This document shows, piece by piece, positions 549 to 50,456 of a DNA stretch of 50,456 bases. The stretch's first letter is position 1. Every line of letters begins with the position of its first letter. The notes beneath the pieces were generated by a model that saw only the letters and a list, made by a program, of their open reading frames with translations, was not told where the DNA came from and did not search any database. The position numbers and the translations under genes are program-made. The DNA comes from a virus (taxonomy: Duplodnaviria; Caudoviricetes): IMG/VR virus record IMGVR_UViG_3300027985_000306, positions 1 to 50,456 of that record; one strand, given 5' to 3'.

Positions 549-2587
549 TGCCGCCTATTCTTGATCCCAACCCGCAGGAACGAGTACCTAAGAGTACTTT
601 CAAGGGACTACTCGATGTTAGTTATGACTATAACTATCCTCGGGATATGAACTTGAAGCCTGGGTCAGAGTTCCACGAGTGGCTACGTCAGCAGCTTTGG
701 TCTCGTGCTTTCAAGAGTCAGCGGACTATGAGTTGGCGCTATGACTCTTGGAAGGAGACTGATAGGTCACTAAAGGCGTATGTGCCCGCTAATTCTAAGG
801 CGGCTCAGAATATGTCTGATGGTGCTACAACCACGGATGAGGACGATCCGCTTTACAGGATCGTCCTGCCTGTGACTTACGCCAACTTGGAAACGTTGTT
901 GACATATATGGTTTCAGCCTTCCTTCAAGATCCTATCTTCAGTTATGAAGGGGCTGGGCCAGAAGACCAATATGGAGCCTTCCTCCTCACCCAACACGTC
1001 GCCCATCAGTGTAGAAAGGCTGCGGTGGGGTTGAACTTGCATACGCAATGGAGAGACGCTTTTGCTTACGGCTTCGGAGCAGTTTCTCCTATGTGGCATC
1101 AAGAACATGGGCGACGCGCTAGGGTGCAGGAGGAGGGCACTTTTGATCCTCTTACCAATTCCTTCAGAGTAACCGGCCGCCGTCGAGAGACTGTAGACGC
1201 CGTGCTGTGGGAAGGGAACAAGTTAGTCAATCTTGATCCCTACCGCTACTTCCCAGATCCCTCGCTGAGCGTAGACGCTGTGCAGGATGGAGAGTTCGTT
1301 GGTTGGTTGGATGAGACCAATTATATGAACCTCCGTGGTCGAGATACTCAGAAGAACGACTTCATCTTCAACGCGCAGTATGTACGGCACATCACTGGCA
1401 ACAGCAGTCTTAGTTCAGTTTATACTTCTGGGCGCGAGTCGGAGGTAGTGAAGGATAGAGACTCTGATGGTGTGACTCAGCCAGTTGATGTTCTGTGGAT
1501 GTACATTAACCTTATCCCTAATGAGTGGCAGTATGGGGGAAGCTCTCTTGGGAATAGCACAAAGCCTGAGAAGTGGCTGTTTGGTCTTGCTGGGGATCAG
1601 GTTATCATAGCGGCTCAACCTCTCGGACTGAATCACAACAGGTATCCAGTAGCGGTTGCAGCTCCAGACTATGACGGTTATAGTGCTGCTCCTGCTGCAA
1701 GACTTGAAATCACTCAGGACTTGCAGGCTATCATTGACTTTCTATATAGCAGCCATATTGCTAACATTCGCAAAGCTATCAACGATATGATCGTGGTCGA
1801 TCCGTCGTTGGTGAACATCTACGACCTTAACACTCCTAAACCAGGTAAGTTGATTCGTCTTCGTCGTACTGCGTGGGGTAGAGGAGGGATCGACGCCGCC
1901 GTAAAACAGCTACAAGTCAATGACGTTACCCAAAACCATACTGCCGACGCTAGCTTCCTTATGGGGTTTACACAACAAGTTATGGGTACATCCGACCAGC
2001 TACAGGGTGTACTGCCAAAGAGACGAGGGGAGCGAATCTCAGCTTCAGAAGCTCAAAACGCACGGCTCAGTGGGCTTGCTAGACTCGAAAGAGTTGCGAG
2101 AATAATCTCTCTTCAGAGTATGCAGCCGCTGGCCTATATGCTCGCTAGCCACACACAACAGTTCGCGGACCATGAACTGTATGTTAAGGTCTTAGGCGAG
2201 TGGCCTCGGCGGTTGCAGGAAGAGTACGGCGGTCAGGTAGGCAACATACAGCAGAATCGTCTGTTGGTAGATCCTATGGATATGCTGATAGACTTTGACA
2301 TAGAAGAACTTGATGGTACCATACCTGGGTCTGAAAGTGCTGAGACATGGATGCAGTTATTGCAGATTGCTTCACAGAACCCTCAGTTGCTAGCTCAGCT
2401 TAGAGTGCCTCAACTCTTCACGCACATTGCTCGTCATCTCGGTGCTAAGAACATCGAGGATTTCATCAACCGCAATCCACCTCCTATCCAAGTAGCTCCA
2501 GATGAAGAGGTGTTGAGAGAAGCAGAGAGAGGTAACTTGGTGGCGTTGTCAGGAGATGGTTCAGCTGGAGCTCCGCCGCTACAATGA
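548..2587 (+). CDS. Portal protein (podovirus type)
   Basis: 679 aa after TerL. DAFAYGFG, DPYRYFPDP and SASEA motifs and overall size match portal proteins. Confidence 0.85.
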   Translation: MPPILDPNPQERVPKSTFKGLLDVSYDYNYPRDMNLKPGSEFHEWLRQQLWSRAFKSQRTMSWRYDSWKETDRSLKAYVPANSKAAQNMSDGATTTDEDDPLYRIVLPVTYANLETLLTYMVSAFLQDPIFSYEGAGPEDQYGAFLLTQHVAHQCRKAAVGLNLHTQWRDAFAYGFGAVSPMWHQEHGRRARVQEEGTFDPLTNSFRVTGRRRETVDAVLWEGNKLVNLDPYRYFPDPSLSVDAVQDGEFVGWLDETNYMNLRGRDTQKNDFIFNAQYVRHITGNSSLSSVYTSGRESEVVKDRDSDGVTQPVDVLWMYINLIPNEWQYGGSSLGNSTKPEKWLFGLAGDQVIIAAQPLGLNHNRYPVAVAAPDYDGYSAAPAARLEITQDLQAIIDFLYSSHIANIRKAINDMIVVDPSLVNIYDLNTPKPGKLIRLRRTAWGRGGIDAAVKQLQVNDVTQNHTADASFLMGFTQQVMGTSDQLQGVLPKRRGERISASEAQNARLSGLARLERVARIISLQSMQPLAYMLASHTQQFADHELYVKVLGEWPRRLQEEYGGQVGNIQQNRLLVDPMDMLIDFDIEELDGTIPGSESAETWMQLLQIASQNPQLLAQLRVPQLFTHIARHLGAKNIEDFINRNPPPIQVAPDEEVLREAERGNLVALSGDGSAGAPPLQ

Positions 2588-2838
2588 ACGACCAAGAGAA
2601 ACATGACACGTATGCCTCTTCGATAGAGCATATCAGACGGAGTGTTTACAACGATCCGTTTTGGCATGATCTGGTTAGGTTCCTTCGGGAACAGATCGAA
2701 GAGGGCATTGTGGTTCTGAGAACATCACAAGATCTAAACCAGATCATCTTCACACAGGGAACACTGACCGCTCTTGAATCTGTCCTCCAGTTCCCAGAGG
2801 ACATAATCGCTATCCTAGACTCCGAAGCCGATGCCTGA
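2584..2838 (+). CDS. Small hypothetical protein downstream of portal
   Basis: 84 aa helical ORF, ATGA overlap with the portal stop; a small gene is common at this position in podoviruses. Confidence 0.65.
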   Translation: MNDQEKHDTYASSIEHIRRSVYNDPFWHDLVRFLREQIEEGIVVLRTSQDLNQIIFTQGTLTALESVLQFPEDIIAILDSEADA

Positions 2839-34893: not shown

Positions 34894-35229
34894 CTACTGC
34901 GGTTTGTGGTTGATGATCGGCTTGTAGCGCCGTTCGAAGGTCTCGATGAAGTTCTGAGTACAAGAAGACCGATGCAATACGATCCCGCTACCGGGATGCC
35001 AAGTTACTCGGTTCCAGCCTCCAAACGTAATCGAGTCGTGGCCCACGTTCTGCACACAGAAGTCCTTCGGACATTCTGCTTCTTCGAAGATTCGGTAGAT
35101 GTCATACACAACATGTGCGACCATGTGTGTAGCTTCATCTCCGATCACATCGAGTGCGCGAGAAAGAGCCTGTTTGCCTCTGTCGTCCATAAGCTCAAGC
35201 GTTTGAGTGAGCGATGCGGCTGGCATCAT
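34894..35229 (-). CDS. Hypothetical protein (true start may be the downstream MDDRG)
   Basis: The annotated ATG lies within the CTGATGA core of hammerhead HH-B. Confidence 0.55.
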   Translation of the reverse strand: MMPAASLTQTLELMDDRGKQALSRALDVIGDEATHMVAHVVYDIYRIFEEAECPKDFCVQNVGHDSITFGGWNRVTWHPGSGIVLHRSSCTQNFIETFERRYKPIINHKPQ

Positions 35230-35287
35230 CAGAGGTTGAGAACCACCCCAACCTGACGGGCGGTTGTTGAGACCGCCCCGTTTCGCC
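35222..35287 (-). ncRNA. Type II hammerhead ribozyme (HH-B)
   Basis: GGC-GAAA-[CGGGGCGGT/ACCGCCCG]-TC^-[AGGTTGGGG/TTCTCAACCT]-CTGATGA-T-GCC. Complete catalytic core; predicted GUC cleavage between 35255 and 35254. Confidence 0.9.
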
Positions 35288-35290
35288 TTA

Positions 35291-37537: not shown

Positions 37538-37577
37538 GATGTTACCTCTTTCCTTAGTGCTAAAAGCGATGACTGCT

Positions 37578-37650
37578 GGCATCGTCAGACCTTGGGAACA
37601 ACCCCAAGATGACCGGAGGCGAAGCCTAAGCAACAACCTCCGGTTTCGCC
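37578..37650 (-). ncRNA. Type II hammerhead ribozyme (HH-A)
   Basis: GGC-GAAA-[CCGGAGG/CCTCCGG]-TC^-[ATCTTGGGG/TCCCAAGGT]-CTGACGA-T-GCC. Complete core; predicted GUC cleavage between 37611 and 37610. Confidence 0.9.
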
Positions 37651-37851
37651 TTATTTGCTGCTGTTCTTGTGCTCCTGGTAGATCGCCTCGATGCCGACGT
37701 TGGCGGGGTAGTCGATCTTCCTGGCCGCACCGGGAACGATGTACTCAGTCCACTGGACGTGCAGCGTCTCGAAGTCTTCGTATCTGTGGTAGAGCGTGCC
37801 GTTGATGTACAGCCGCTCGGTGTGGGCGAAGATGTTGACGTGGGCTTTCAT
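37651..37851 (-). CDS. Hypothetical protein
   Basis: 66 aa; its TAA stop abuts HH-A. Confidence 0.6.
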   Translation of the reverse strand: MKAHVNIFAHTERLYINGTLYHRYEDFETLHVQWTEYIVPGAARKIDYPANVGIEAIYQEHKNSSK

Positions 37852-38382: not shown

Positions 38383-38429
38383 GCCTGTACGGTCGTTTTT
38401 GTCTAGGAAAAGACGCACGTTGATTACAT

Positions 38430-38676
38430 GTAACATCGTAACCTTGTAACCTTGTAACCCCACCACCCTCTCCCCCCAACGGTATCAAACGTAGACGGAC
38501 ACCTACTCTCTACCTTCCCTTCTATCTATCTTCTTTACTTAGTTATTTTTTTCTTTTTTTTTTTAAAGAGAGAGAGAAAGAAAGATAGAAAGAAAGCGCC
38601 GGTCTATGTCCGAGCCGGGACAGAGGAGAGGGGGACATGGTTACATGATTACATGGTTACACAGTTACAACGTTAC
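38430..38676. repeat. Inverted arrays of 8-nt-period GTAAC/GTTAC repeats around a pyrimidine/purine tract (candidate replication origin)
   Basis: GTAAC at 38430, 38438, 38446, 38454; (G/A)TTAC at 38640, 38648, 38656, 38664, 38672; central T-rich then AG-rich tract. Confidence 0.75.
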
Positions 38677-39081
38677 GAATCAGGGGGTCGGAAAGTGCAA
38701 CTACAACACATACCGCAGATAGAAGACAGTTGAGCTTAAATCCACATCCAATCGGGCTGTTTTCTTATTTTTCCTCTTAGCACATAGGACTACGTATATC
38801 GGTGTCTAGCCACATCGCCATACCGACCCCGGCCCCCTTCGTGTAGTTCGTCACACTGTAGCTCACGCTATTTAACTCCCCCTAACAACTACCCCTACCA
38901 GTCAACAACGTTATGGCTTGTACTACGTATATACCCCAACACCTCGTCACACTGTAGCAAGCGGAGCTTCGCCCTACTAGACCATTTTCCTTCGCGGGTG
39001 TAGTACAGCCGTTATTGTACATGGGCCGCCCCCATGCCAGCAAGAACGCAATAACGGTCTTCTACGGTCGTTTATGTACAT

Positions 39082-39120
39082 AAAAAAAGGGACAACCGCT
39101 TACGCGTGGTTGTCCCTTTC
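39082..39120 (-). terminator. Rho-independent terminator of the first early cassette
   Basis: AAAGGGACAACC...GGTTGTCCC followed by TTTTTTT. Confidence 0.85.
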
Positions 39121-39150
39121 TTGTATGGATAAGGGTTGCTTTTTCCTTAC

Positions 39151-39375
39151 TTACTTGTTCGCGTTCATGTTCGCACTTCCGTTCACTTCAACGTGAAGGA
39201 ATCCGAACATTCCCTTACGGAATTTGACCTGTACTTCAACGGGCACGTTGAACGTTTCCGATGTGTACGTGAAGGTCACGCTTTCCGCGTCTTGTGTGCC
39301 GTTCAACATCTTGTATGAGGCTTCAAGCAACAAATCCTCAACAATCCGTTCGGCTTGTTTCTTTGGGAAGAACAT
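39151..39375 (-). CDS. Hypothetical early protein
   Basis: 74 aa; shares the atypical codon usage of its upstream neighbour. Confidence 0.65.
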   Translation of the reverse strand: MFFPKKQAERIVEDLLLEASYKMLNGTQDAESVTFTYTSETFNVPVEVQVKFRKGMFGFLHVEVNGSANMNANK

Positions 39376-39380
39376 GACGT

Positions 39381-40094
39381 TTACTTGTTGTCGTTGTTGT
39401 TGTCGTTGTCGGTACCTTCGTTGTTCGCGGATTCCTTCGCTTTCTTCGCTTCGATCATTGCCTTTTCACGTGCTTCCAACAATGCGATCAAGGCGCGAAC
39501 ATCTTCCGGGGTTTCGGCTTTGGTTTCCTTCAACAACTTGTCGGTCTTTTCTTCCGTTGACAACGGATACTCCATCGGCACACCGATGTTGTTGAATCCA
39601 ACCTCAACAACGGGGATGGATTCCTTCACATCTTCCATCTTGCCGCCCAAGGCGGCTTTCCGGCGAACGGTGCGGGTGATACGCTTTCCATCGTTCAACG
39701 GCTTTCCGTCTTCACCGATCGCCCCCCATGACTTCCAGAAGCGATGAAAGGCGGCTTTCGTCTTCGGCTTGTCCCTGTTCACTCGTGCGAACGTGACAAC
39801 CTTTTTACGTGCCGCTTCCTTCAAGATCGGCTTCAATTCAACCCCGGCGAAGTTGACGTGCAACATGATGTATTCACCCGTTGTGTTGTCCCCTTCGTCT
39901 TTGTCGTATCCAACATGCGTCAACAGCTTGATAACTGCTTCCGGCACATCGGGGACAACGAACATCGGCTCCTCTTTCTTCGCTTCCGGCTTCACGTCAT
40001 TCGTTGACGTATCGGCTTCCACGGCTTCCACGGCTTCAACAACGTCCGTTGTTGCCGCTTCAACGGCTTCAACTTTCTTGGCTTGCTTTGACAT
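39381..40094 (-). CDS. Hypothetical early protein (237 aa, charged), probably first gene transcribed
   Basis: Start MSKQAKK at 40094 after an AC-rich leader; EAV repeats; GAA/CAA/TTG-biased codons. Confidence 0.75.
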   Translation of the reverse strand: MSKQAKKVEAVEAATTDVVEAVEAVEADTSTNDVKPEAKKEEPMFVVPDVPEAVIKLLTHVGYDKDEGDNTTGEYIMLHVNFAGVELKPILKEAARKKVVTFARVNRDKPKTKAAFHRFWKSWGAIGEDGKPLNDGKRITRTVRRKAALGGKMEDVKESIPVVEVGFNNIGVPMEYPLSTEEKTDKLLKETKAETPEDVRALIALLEAREKAMIEAKKAKESANNEGTDNDNNNDNK

Positions 40095-40222
40095 TGGTTC
40101 GGTGTTTGTTGCCCTTGTAAGGGCAATGTGTACGTTCCAGCGGCAAAGCAACCCTTATCCCTTCAACTTCAATCCCAACTTCCCATCGGGCGAACAAGAA
40201 ACCGTCCCTTGTCCCCCCGTCC

Positions 40223-40241
40223 CCCACACATTCAAAGAACA
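40223..40241 (-). promoter_or_regulatory. boxA/boxC-like antitermination signal
   Basis: TGTTCTTTGAA immediately followed by TGTGTGGG in the 5' leader. Confidence 0.55.
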
Positions 40242-40390
40242 CGCTTGCAACCACGCTTGCGCTTGCGCAAACGCGTTGCGCGTACGCATGGAAATGTTCA
40301 AAAGATCCCTGTTTATGTGAATCTAACATGAAGACGGATTCATGCAGGGTTGGCATAACAAGTTAAGTCTAATGTTTACACGCGCTGGAC

Positions 40391-40433: not shown

Positions 40434-40483
40434 CAACCCGCCCCCCGTACATCAAGCGCCGTGAACAACCCGCCCCCCGTACA
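40434..40483. repeat. 18-bp direct repeat x2
   Basis: CAACCCGCCCCCCGTACA at 40434-40451 and 40466-40483. Confidence 0.85.
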
Positions 40484-40776
40484 CAACATGCGATGTTCAC
40501 CGGCTTTGATATAACCGCTTTGTGTAAACGCTGGAATAATATGCATTTAAGGAGCACCCCCCTTGGGGAACAACGTCCTGGATTGTAGAACGTCAAGCAT
40601 CGACACAATATGGGAGGGTTCTAGCTTTTCCCACATCTTTGTTCACTTCACTCTTGTTCGCCCCGCTTAACAAATTTGTTTTAAACAATTTGTGTGTTGG
40701 GGCTGCTTGCGTTTGGTCGGCGCGTTCTTTATTGTTACGCTGTTCGCCGGACTTTTGTTAGATCACTAAGAAAGCC

Positions 40777-49545: not shown

Positions 49546-50456
49546 ATGAGCGATCCTAACAACATACGGGACATTCTGGCAGCCTGTTATCAGGACTCGC
49601 AGACTATGGCTAAGGTATTCTTGCCTGAGCGGTTCTGGAGACCGTTCGATCCGCAGGTGCATGGCCAGATGTTTGACCTGATCGACAACAGCGATAATCC
49701 ACTAAAGGCCATTGCAGCGCCTCGTGGTATGGGTAAGACTTCTATCATCAACCTATTGCTGCCTATGAAAGCTATCTTGTTTCAGGAAAGCCGCTACATC
49801 GTTCCAGTTAGCGCAACGACCGACCTTGCAATGCAGCAAGCTGAGAACTTGAAACAAGAACTAATCATCAATCCTTTGGTTGAGAAGCTCTATGGTCCCT
49901 TGGCATCTCAAAACTTCAGCAAGCGTCAGTGGGTCGTCAACATAGGCGACCAGGATATATGCGTTATGCCTCGAGGCGCTGGACAGCAGATTCGTGGTTT
50001 GCTCTACCGTAACTACAGACCCGGCCTTATCCTCGTGGATGACTTGGAAGATCCAGAGGCGATGGACTCCGAGGAACAGCGAGCTAAGAAGAAGGAGTGG
50101 TTCTACGCTGACCTACTAAACTGTGTTGACCGTGGAAAAGGTAGCCAATGGCAGATCATTGTACTGGGTACGATTCTGCACCAAGACTCTTTGCTCGAAG
50201 GTCTGCTTGATAATCCTTCTTGGGACTCTATTCGCCTCGAGTTGTGCGATGACAATCTAAACAGTCTTGCGCCGAACTTTATGTCCACCAAGGACGTTCG
50301 GACGCTATATCAGCAATTTAAGGAAGCTGGAAAGGAGGATACATTCTATCGAGAATATAGAAACAACCCTGTTCCTATCTCTTCAGATGCTACCTTCCCT
50401 TCCGCACTGTTTAAGAACTACGATCCTGTCAAAGAGAATCTCGACGCCAATCCGCA
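49546..50456 (+). CDS. terL: Terminase large subunit, N-terminal ATPase domain (runs off the window end; not in ORF track)
   Basis: MSDPNNIRD...; Walker A APRGMGKTS, QQIRG, Walker B LILVDDLED, IVLGTILH.DSLL. Confidence 0.92.
   Translation, partial: MSDPNNIRDILAACYQDSQTMAKVFLPERFWRPFDPQVHGQMFDLIDNSDNPLKAIAAPRGMGKTSIINLLLPMKAILFQESRYIVPVSATTDLAMQQAENLKQELIINPLVEKLYGPLASQNFSKRQWVVNIGDQDICVMPRGAGQQIRGLLYRNYRPGLILVDDLEDPEAMDSEEQRAKKKEWFYADLLNCVDRGKGSQWQIIVLGTILHQDSLLEGLLDNPSWDSIRLELCDDNLNSLAPNFMSTKDVRTLYQQFKEAGKEDTFYREYRNNPVPISSDATFPSALFKNYDPVKENLDANP

Follow-up and report, generated by a model that had tools for sequence, protein, structure and literature searches.

The stretch of DNA analyzed here, referred to as the window, is a complete virus record of IMG/VR (IMGVR_UViG_3300027985_000306, Caudoviricetes) of 50,456 nucleotides (nt). 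It encodes a portal protein and a major capsid protein of the SU10 type as well as a family A DNA polymerase, a primase and an exonuclease; the closest GenBank polymerase to that of the window belongs to a Desulfofustis phage (41% identity). Rightward genes run from 40777 through the end of the record to 16528, and leftward genes from 40094 to 16525. At the head of the leftward block, which holds the replication genes, lies an early cassette of two open reading frames (ORFs), ORF A and ORF B, and a 680-nt divergent region separates it from a gene coding for a helix-turn-helix/small-terminase-like protein of 181 amino acids (aa). The cassette is enclosed by the two arms of a long inverted repeat; these arms, and the helix that they could form in the messenger RNA (mRNA), are the subject of this study (Table 1).

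The initial annotation of the window had drawn attention to a perfect 16-bp inverted repeat around the cassette. This repeat is real, as GGATAAGGGTTGCTTT is present at 39127-39142 on the plus strand and its exact reverse complement at 40145-40160. These are the only two matches of GGATAAGGGTTGCTTT in the window when up to 2 mismatches are allowed (shuffle mean 0.04; none of 100 shuffles gave two or more), and the repeat extends to 22 positions with 2 mismatches (39121-39142 / 40145-40166). It is the longest exact inverted repeat in the window, the next six being 14 nt long, and the next three found within 3 kb are 13 nt long. By our own arithmetic, inverted repeats of 16 nt are expected about 0.3 times per window at any distance and about 0.02-0.05 times within 1-3 kb. 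Since about 0.3 are expected by chance, the length of the repeat is by itself only suggestive, and the argument is carried by the position of the arms. On the minus strand, 50 nt separate the end of the 5' arm from the ATG of ORF A (40094), and the 3' arm starts 8 nt past the stop codon of ORF B (39151) and abuts a terminator hairpin. The 3' arm is located, as annotated, between the last stop codon and the terminator, with a hairpin at 39122-39083 followed by a T-run; this hairpin, which has a 10-nt loop, was not among the matches of a consensus terminator scan. Codon usage is normal in ORF A and ORF B and gives both a clear signal (scores in Table 1, for a gene median of 0.24), whereas a score of about 0 was obtained for an alternative ORF further upstream (40356-40069), which would include the 5' arm.

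A single homologue of ORF A, P0002 (63% identity), was retrieved in word-indexed and full HMMER searches covering billions of proteins. It is encoded on a 49,420-nt contig (ENA/Logan) representing one close relative of the phage, and both proteins begin M-[A/S]-K-Q, which backs the start assigned to ORF A. ORF A gave no loci in the viral or metagenome contigs searched and no tblastn match in phages, the 494-aa neighbour gene used as a query gave no loci, and the DNA of the cassette region had no match in GenBank phages. Neither ORF A nor ORF B matched a Pfam or PHROG family, and nothing usable was obtained for ORF A in Atlas (own model with a pLDDT, the predicted local distance difference test, of 0.45; best feature score 0.79).

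Relatives were gathered by way of the adjoining 181-aa gene, which has many distant homologues. The 36 metagenome and 68 viral loci obtained (104 in all) fell into 70 clusters at 90% identity, 63 of which carry at least 700 nt upstream of the match and were tested. Helices enclosing ORFs were found in 9 of these 63 clusters (L009, L011, L025, L043, L044, L051, L058, L063 and L046/L109) and, with the window, make up the ten cassettes referred to below. They share a common layout, in which the 5' arm lies just upstream of the ribosome-binding region, one or two leftward ORFs follow, and the 3' arm comes right after the last stop codon. In terms of the perfect cores, 11-59 nt separate the end of the 5' arm from the ATG, and the stop codon is followed by the 3' arm at a distance of 7-27 nt (for L051 and L109, by our own arithmetic). 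The helices of the relatives cover 14-33 positions, at least 21 positions being reached in 7 of the ten cassettes, and the enclosed stretch is a protein-coding early cassette of 0.26-1.0 kb. The arm sequences are all different, no two of the ten cassettes having similar ones. L063 and L011 follow exactly the plan of the window: two overlapping ORFs of which the second is short, the 3' arm and a terminator. The enclosed proteins (44-237 aa, hydrophilic by inspection) are mostly unrelated to one another, only those of L043 and L063 being detectably homologous in that comparison; those of the relatives matched no Pfam or PHROG family, and no Rfam family reached its gathering score in nine relatives. 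Among cluster mates, L044 and L045 are identical and L050 does not have the region.

Table 1. Features of the early cassette, with their coordinates in the window, and helices enclosing the cassettes of related loci.
Feature	Coordinates	Strand	Size	Remarks
boxA-like box GTTCTTTGAAT	40233..40243	-		leader, 63 nt upstream of 5' arm; 1 mismatch to GYTCTTTRANA
Upstream leader segment	40190..40201	-		can pair with 39151-39162 (end of ORF B); competes with main helix
5' arm of long-range helix	40145..40166	-		perfect core 40145-40160
Small leader hairpin	40106..40123	-	7-bp stem	between 5' arm and start codon; in every leader fold
Translation start region	40078..40097	-		ATG 40094 and codons 2-5; can pair with 3' half of 5' arm
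ORF A	39381..40094	-	237 aa	codon score 0.35
ORF B	39151..39375	-	74 aa	codon score 0.23
3' arm of long-range helix	39121..39142	-		perfect core 39127-39142
Intrinsic-terminator-like hairpin	39076..39122	-	12-15 bp stem, 10-nt loop	followed by U-run; from inverted repeat 39083-39097 / 39108-39122 and fold
L058 helix			31 positions	29 Watson-Crick, 2 G·U
L051 helix			31 positions	26 Watson-Crick, 4 G·U, 1 A·C
L025 helix			28 positions	24 Watson-Crick, 4 G·U
L043 helix			26 positions	23 Watson-Crick, 3 G·U
L109 helix (record behind L046)			24 positions	21 Watson-Crick, 3 G·U
L009 helix			25 positions	20 Watson-Crick, 3 G·U, 2 mismatches
L044 helix			21 positions	19 Watson-Crick, 2 G·U
L063 helix			17 positions	16 Watson-Crick, 1 G·U
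L011 helix			14 positions	

In four cassettes (the window, L063, L011 and L009) a terminator hairpin stands directly behind the 3' arm. This is the usual build of small RNAs derived from 3' untranslated regions (UTRs), and self-targeting members of this class are known (review PMC7821165), so that the 3' arm and the terminator might be released together as a small RNA acting in trans on the leaders of new transcripts. In L043, L058, L025, L051, L109 and L044, however, no terminator follows the 3' arm and the next gene begins within about 30-60 nt, whereas pairing in cis accounts for all ten cassettes. We therefore consider a small RNA acting in trans very unlikely, and cis pairing between the two arms is the arrangement analyzed below.

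To control for the frequency of such pairs, we compared, locus by locus, the region upstream of an ORF with the region just after a stop codon and scored the best exact complement, for which a minimum of 13 nt was required. On the early side, complements of this length were present in 9 of 64 loci, compared with none of 64 in each of two decoy pairings, 1 of 66 for late genes and 1 of 66 for a late-gene decoy. Six of the nine early-side matches were clean (the window, L011, L025, L043, L058 and L063); the other three were part of a low-complexity long hairpin (L014), a near-palindrome (L054) and a match of another kind (L049). With a score tolerating G·U pairs, 7 of the 63 relatives lay above the highest of 64 decoys. 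Run-length and diagonal scoring were used in place of RNAduplex, whose very large energies for the full set of intergenic regions were artefactual and came from long duplexes with loose pairing.

A few loci fell outside the count. A high-scoring pair in L069 was discarded because it encloses no ORF, and it resembles two inverted copies of the box described below. Possible helices enclosing several ORFs, with spans of 1.1-1.5 kb and a 3' arm 3-7 nt past the stop codon, were seen in L038 (7099-7082 / 5577-5560) and L083 (1629-1584 / 482-437); they were left out as the score of L038 is within the range of the decoys and the arms of L083 are themselves hairpins. No ORF-enclosing helix was found in Desulfofustis phage OP947158.

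The composition of the helices was used to distinguish a structure acting in RNA from a pair of sites acting in DNA. The limits of the helices were set for this purpose by a strand-symmetric score in which G·U and A·C are treated alike. On the sense strand, the non-Watson-Crick positions of the transition type comprised 20 G·U versus 3 A·C (p = 0.0005); the ratio was 16:1 and 22:4 under other settings and 9:1 under a stricter rule. No such bias is expected of sites acting as double-stranded DNA, and the preference for G·U on the sense strand thus argues against them. A second line of evidence was provided by L051 and L109, homologous cassettes with 55% protein identity and the same promoter and box, whose helices are placed in the same register by MAFFT. 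Over 24 aligned pairs, 12 had changed on both sides, 5 on one side and 6 were invariant. In this alignment 97.9% of cells were paired compared with 35-48% when the partner was slid, and none of 500 shuffles reached the observed value. Covariation in related phages, which the initial annotation had named as a way of checking the repeat, is therefore seen for 12 of the 24 pairs of the L051/L109 helix, and applies to these two cassettes rather than to the repeat of the window. Combined, the recurrence in 9 of 63 clusters, the 20:3 ratio of G·U to A·C and the covariation between L051 and L109 support the earlier proposal that the 5' UTR pairs with the 3' UTR and so leaves both ORFs in a loop, and comparison of the sequences makes it very probable that a helix in the RNA is under selection.

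The same data bear on whether the arms could act as DNA, whether by delimiting an invertible segment, by serving as terminal repeats of a mobile cassette or by binding one protein at two sites. In its geometry, a perfect 16-bp inverted repeat with a spacing of about 1 kb resembles Hin-type invertible segments. However, the genome encodes no recognizable serine or tyrosine recombinase: no match to PF00239 (Resolvase) or PF00589 (Phage_integrase) was obtained at E<=1 in the whole genome while positive controls worked, in agreement with the earlier remark that no invertase was recognized. ORF A and ORF B match no family, transposases included, and no flanking direct repeat or target-site duplication was seen by eye beside the arms. 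No joints were present in the assembled contigs of four DNA runs (two probably from the source sample, the others small pieces away from the arms), but as contigs drop rare variants this result bears neither way on inversion; among the sequencing runs listed as containing the sequence, none was of RNA. Furthermore, the sequences of the arms change from phage to phage, while their placement follows the start and stop codons. With no recombinase and with a strand asymmetry that speaks against double-stranded sites, the suggestion of an invertible segment or of protein-binding sites is left without support, and we regard a role of the arms as DNA as hardly credible.

We then turned to the energetics of the RNA helix. 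The duplex of the window has a computed energy of -25.6 kcal/mol for the 16-bp core and of -27.0 kcal/mol for the 22 positions. In eight relatives folded with 60-nt flanks, the helix was largely or wholly part of the minimum-energy fold (16-31 of its pairs), with a mean pair probability of 0.78-0.98. With the 5' end of the RNA placed at 40166, the helix of the window was likewise in the minimum-energy fold, with a probability of about 1.0.

Folding of the leaders indicated a second partner for the 5' arm. When the leader of the window was folded without its 3' end, 40154-40145 paired with 40080-40089, so that the ATG and codons 2-5 were bound by the 3' half of the arm. For the start region (-18 to +12), the computed cost of opening was 17.3 kcal/mol with the arm free and 10.3 kcal/mol with the arm sequestered, and sequestering the arm is predicted to ease the opening of the start region in 9 of the ten cassettes. 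None of 100 shuffled arms masked the start region of the window as well as the real one, and at most 4 of 100 shuffled arms reached the real value in 8 of the ten cassettes. Masking of the start site played no role in finding the cassettes. These predictions suggest a switch in three parts, in which the 5' arm would mask the start site until captured by the 3' arm, the latter resembling the start region. Unmasking of the start site, a role absent from the initial annotation, is on these models slightly favoured. A Shine-Dalgarno sequence is missing at most genes of the window, where leaders are A/C-rich, which hints at a host making little use of such sequences; in such a host the structure of the mRNA at the start site would matter more.

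The direction of this predicted effect is also informative on the possibility that the helix between 5' and 3' ends represents an OFF or decay state that marks the mRNA for destruction by RNase III and shuts the early genes off. There is a precedent in icaR, where pairing between the 3' and 5' UTRs gives a substrate for RNase III and lowers expression (PMC3868564). In the phage cassettes, by contrast, the helix leaves the Shine-Dalgarno sequence and the start codon uncovered in all ten cases, and in 9 of ten the start region is predicted to become more open, not more closed, when the 5' arm is sequestered. An OFF state appears quite improbable in consequence, and the predictions point instead to a helix that would free the start codon.

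A conserved box precedes the arms. A single sense-strand copy of the sequence GTTCTTTGACA(A) lies upstream of the 5' arm in each of L043, L058, L051 and L109 (at 5-10 nt) and in L063 (at 39 nt). Copies with 1 mismatch lie 1 nt before the arm in L011, 9 nt before it in L009 and 63 nt before it in the window (GTTCTTTGAAT, 40243-40233), and the copy of L025 has 2 mismatches. Written as GYTCTTTRANA, the box is exact in 5 of the ten cassettes and present with 1 mismatch in 3 more, among them the window, making 8 of ten in total for a background, at up to 1 mismatch, of 0.024 per sequence window of that size. The boxA consensus of gamma-proteobacteria is GYTCTTTAANA (PMC5725501); the box of the relatives matches it at 10 of 11 positions and that of the window at 9 of 11, on the understanding that this gamma-proteobacterial consensus may not be that of the hosts. 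A literature search combining the box sequence with 'boxA' returned nothing relevant. Near-consensus sigma-70 promoters are located 39-122 nt upstream of the arm in L043, L058, L025, L009, L051 and L044; the box and the arm would thus be transcribed and the arm would be internal to the leader. The TTGACA contained in the box was rejected as a -35 element, as only L051 has a weak -10 (9/12) at the right spacing and stronger promoters are found further upstream. The boxA-like box is probably involved in the function of the unit.

With these elements at hand, we asked whether the repeat of the window might be a coincidence or a recent, functionless product of template switching, the helices of the relatives being real. 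About 0.3 such repeats of 16 nt are expected in 50 kb by our own arithmetic, which is not very rare, and the helix falls outside the minimum-energy fold when the leader is made longer (see below). Against this, both arms occupy the same codon-anchored positions as in the nine relatives, none of 100 shuffled arms equals the 5' arm in masking the start region, and a box with 1 mismatch is present upstream. A chance repeat is for these reasons very improbable, and we treat the window as a member of the same group of cassettes.

Taken together, the data are best accounted for by a leader-trailer helix like that of ribosomal RNA (rRNA) operons, which would act on the mRNA through processing by RNase III and/or through unmasking of the start site; we hold this to be the probable explanation. 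In the sense (minus-strand) early mRNA, the arms would serve as the leader strand and the trailer strand of a long-range helix, and the putative unit would be ordered like the beginning of an rRNA operon, with a promoter, a boxA-like box, the 5' arm, a ribosome-binding region, ORF A and ORF B, the 3' arm and a terminator. While the cassette is being transcribed, the 5' arm would fold back on the start-codon region and mask it. Once the 3' arm is made behind the last stop codon, the longer helix between the two ends (16-22 bp, about -26 kcal/mol) would win, closing the mRNA into a loop and freeing the start region. This helix would offer two turns of double-stranded RNA, and a cut by the host RNase III would be expected to release the cassette mRNA with paired ends. 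The boxA-like box may recruit the host NusB/S10 and keep the leader near the polymerase; such a complex would resist termination on RNA that is still untranslated and shield the nascent RNA from Rho, as at rRNA operons. From what is known of rRNA operons, Nus factors and RNase III, we infer that the helix forms in vivo and has effects on translation, on cleavage by RNase III and on the binding of Nus.

Cleavage of such duplexes of 20-30 bp by the host RNase III is, by this analogy, somewhat more plausible than its absence. The helix could in fact be nothing but a processing stalk for RNase III or a shield for the mRNA ends, in which case the 5' arm would pair with the start region only incidentally. 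With 14-33 positions, and at least 21 in 7 of ten cassettes, the helices are longer than regulatory pairing requires; the leaders of the relatives reach 39-122 nt beyond the arm; in several relatives the RNA continues into the next gene, so that cistrons would be parted by a cut; RNase III acts on the leader-trailer helices of rRNA (PMC10250234); and L011 and L025 show no significant masking. Masking nevertheless exceeds that of shuffled arms in 8 of the ten cassettes, independently of how these were found, and a domain search showed that the phage encodes no RNase III or double-stranded RNA-binding domain of its own. Processing or protection without any effect on the start site consequently seems unlikely to us, and the preferred explanation remains a helix that could combine processing with unmasking. 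A bolder version, in which this clade of phages copied the logic of rRNA operons, with a leader strand held by Nus factors and a closed loop working as a 'toehold' switch in cis so that only complete mRNAs with an intact 3' end are translated, is put forward tentatively and is itself doubtful. If true, such a toehold-type switch would be the prokaryotic counterpart of the eukaryotic closed-loop integrity check.

Several observations weigh against a helix acting as proposed. The helix of the window is, in the folding models, the least certain of the ten: with the 5' end of the RNA at 40201 or 40226 it leaves the minimum-energy fold, its probability being 0.2 and 0.45, respectively. This drop upon addition of 35-60 nt of leader is due to a competing pairing of 40201-40190 with the end of ORF B, and forcing the helix with the longer leader costs only 3.2 kcal/mol. 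The helix of the window also lies below the maximum of the decoys in the G·U-tolerant scan, because all 40 kb were searched, and the covariation seen in the aligned sequences is that of the relatives L051 and L109 and not of the window's own repeat. The design is not obligatory, being present in only 9 of 63 clusters; genes of the L011 family in L010, L007, L008 and L056 and a gene of the L063 family in L058 have no enclosing helix, with best scores of 22-31 that equal the background. The arms of L011 and L025 mask the start region no better than shuffled ones (96 and 19 of 100 shuffles, respectively, reach the real value). As to the upstream elements, L044 has no box, the box of the window is the weakest copy by its 9 of 11 positions and its distance of 63 nt from the arm, and the promoters of the relatives are consensus matches only. 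A G at position 8 of the box is normal in rRNA boxA of other phyla, and it is taken here as a putative boxA variant.

The resemblance to the processing stalk of pre-16S rRNA, pointed out initially for the helix, proved closer than had been described, because a boxA-like box precedes the 5' arm. In rRNA operons, the promoter is followed by boxA and then by the leader strand of a leader-trailer helix that is cut by RNase III (PMC10250234), and a Nus loop and translational repression near boxA have been reported (PMC5725501). Like the phage cassettes, an rRNA operon is composed of a promoter, a boxA (or boxA-like) box, a leader strand, a long enclosed RNA and a trailer strand (PMC10250234), with the box just upstream of the leader strand; its helix is of about 17 bp or more and kept by covariation. 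The window has 16 perfect bp within 22 positions, and the relatives 14-33 positions, against this length of more than about 17 bp. Unlike an rRNA operon, the phage unit encloses a protein-coding early cassette of 0.26-1.0 kb, no boxB or boxC was identified in it, and its leader strand has a predicted second partner in the start-codon region.

Complementarity of a 5' UTR with a 3' UTR within one transcription unit, as in icaR, hbs and RNAIII, is present in the window cassette. The icaR mRNA of Staphylococcus aureus likewise pairs its 5' UTR with its 3' UTR (PMC3868564). In icaR, the 3' UTR covers the Shine-Dalgarno sequence and represses, whereas the partner of the phage 3' arm is an anti-start segment further upstream, and relief of repression is the predicted result; the phage helices are also longer than that of icaR and placed directly after the stop codon. 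The hbs mRNA of Bacillus subtilis resembles the phage unit in having a long-range helix between its UTRs, of 14 bp and thus of similar length, that modulates access of a nuclease (PMC5737220). The hbs helix protects against RNase Y, belongs to a single gene and is not recurrent, and neither a box nor an alternative pairing at the start site is reported for it (PMC5737220). Few bacterial mRNAs are known to pair their two UTRs; a review of 2021 names RNAIII, icaR and hbs as bacterial cases of 5'-3' UTR pairing and asks whether the mechanism is more general (PMC7821165).

Other systems share parts of the design. The hok mRNA (plasmid R1, fbi-tac) and other type I toxin mRNAs form a three-way switch, the partner of the 5' end being either the 3' end or local elements controlling translation. 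The sign is opposite to that predicted for the phage cassettes, as 5'-3' pairing keeps the hok mRNA silent, and the products of hok systems are small hydrophobic toxins with an antisense RNA partner. The proteins of the phage cassettes do not fit this class, being of 44-237 aa and hydrophilic by inspection, and an antisense promoter was sought only in a general scan. Host RNase III processes early transcripts of other phages and affects their translation or stability, as in the T7 early mRNA and the lambda N leader; the sites concerned are local intergenic hairpins and not helices enclosing cistrons. No description of ORF-enclosing leader-trailer helices in phages was found in the literature searched, which did not cover most subscription journals, and a boxA-preceded helix of this kind that recurs across phages, its leader strand doubling as an anti-start element, appears to be new.

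The occurrence of this design in at least ten unrelated-looking phage cassettes, together with covariation, a G·U signature on the sense strand and a conserved boxA-like box, provides a comparative test bed. On it one could examine how mRNA helices of long range arise while transcription proceeds, whether protein-coding genes of phages other than the lambdoid ones are acted on by Nus factors, and whether translation can depend on the 3' end of the mRNA itself. The cassettes of relatives with near-consensus sigma-70 promoters are directly testable in laboratory strains.

Additional features were noted around the cassette. The divergent promoter region contains an exact 18-nt direct repeat, CAACCCGCCCCCCGTACA, in two copies 32 nt apart (40434-40451 and 40466-40483) that look like an operator. 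A palindromic ACAAATTTGT and a near copy of it (40669-40700), just upstream of the rightward 181-aa gene, are possibly an operator as well. Downstream of the cassette, an exact 15-nt direct repeat, TCGTCACACTGTAGC, is present in non-coding DNA in two copies 96 nt apart (38848-38862 and 38944-38958). The cassette terminator is followed by a 700-nt gap without coding sequence, which contains an imperfect and very long hairpin (about 110 bp; 38420-38680, minus strand; z = -8.5). Its outer arms carry GTAAC-type repeats, its inner arms are CU-rich and GA-rich and its centre is A-rich, and it scores 71 on the minus strand versus 41 on the other. Long hairpins resembling it are found in L044, behind the first early cassette, as well as in the Desulfofustis phage (L110 1370-972), L014, L010, L056 and L007; the hairpin of the window could be a replication origin or a structured RNA.

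The two ends of the record (1-548 and 49546-50456) fall inside ORFs adjoining the portal gene, which are probably one gene, perhaps that of the large terminase, split where a circular or permuted assembly was cut. In the Desulfofustis phage (L110, OP947158.1), an early leftward gene beside the small terminase (2204-2680, minus strand) is annotated as an inhibitor of the host RecBCD nuclease, which hints, by analogy, that early genes at this position may be counter-defence genes. Finally, two matches to type II hammerhead ribozymes are present on the minus strand at 35214-35288 and 37567-37651, with 39.6 and 39.1 bits for an Rfam gathering score of 37. In both, the CUGANGA, GAAA and GUC cores are intact, and each begins at the stop codon of an early ORF and occupies the spacer up to the next ORF. 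As both hammerheads occupy intergenic spacers of the same leftward transcript, RNA processing seems to be a theme of the leftward operon.

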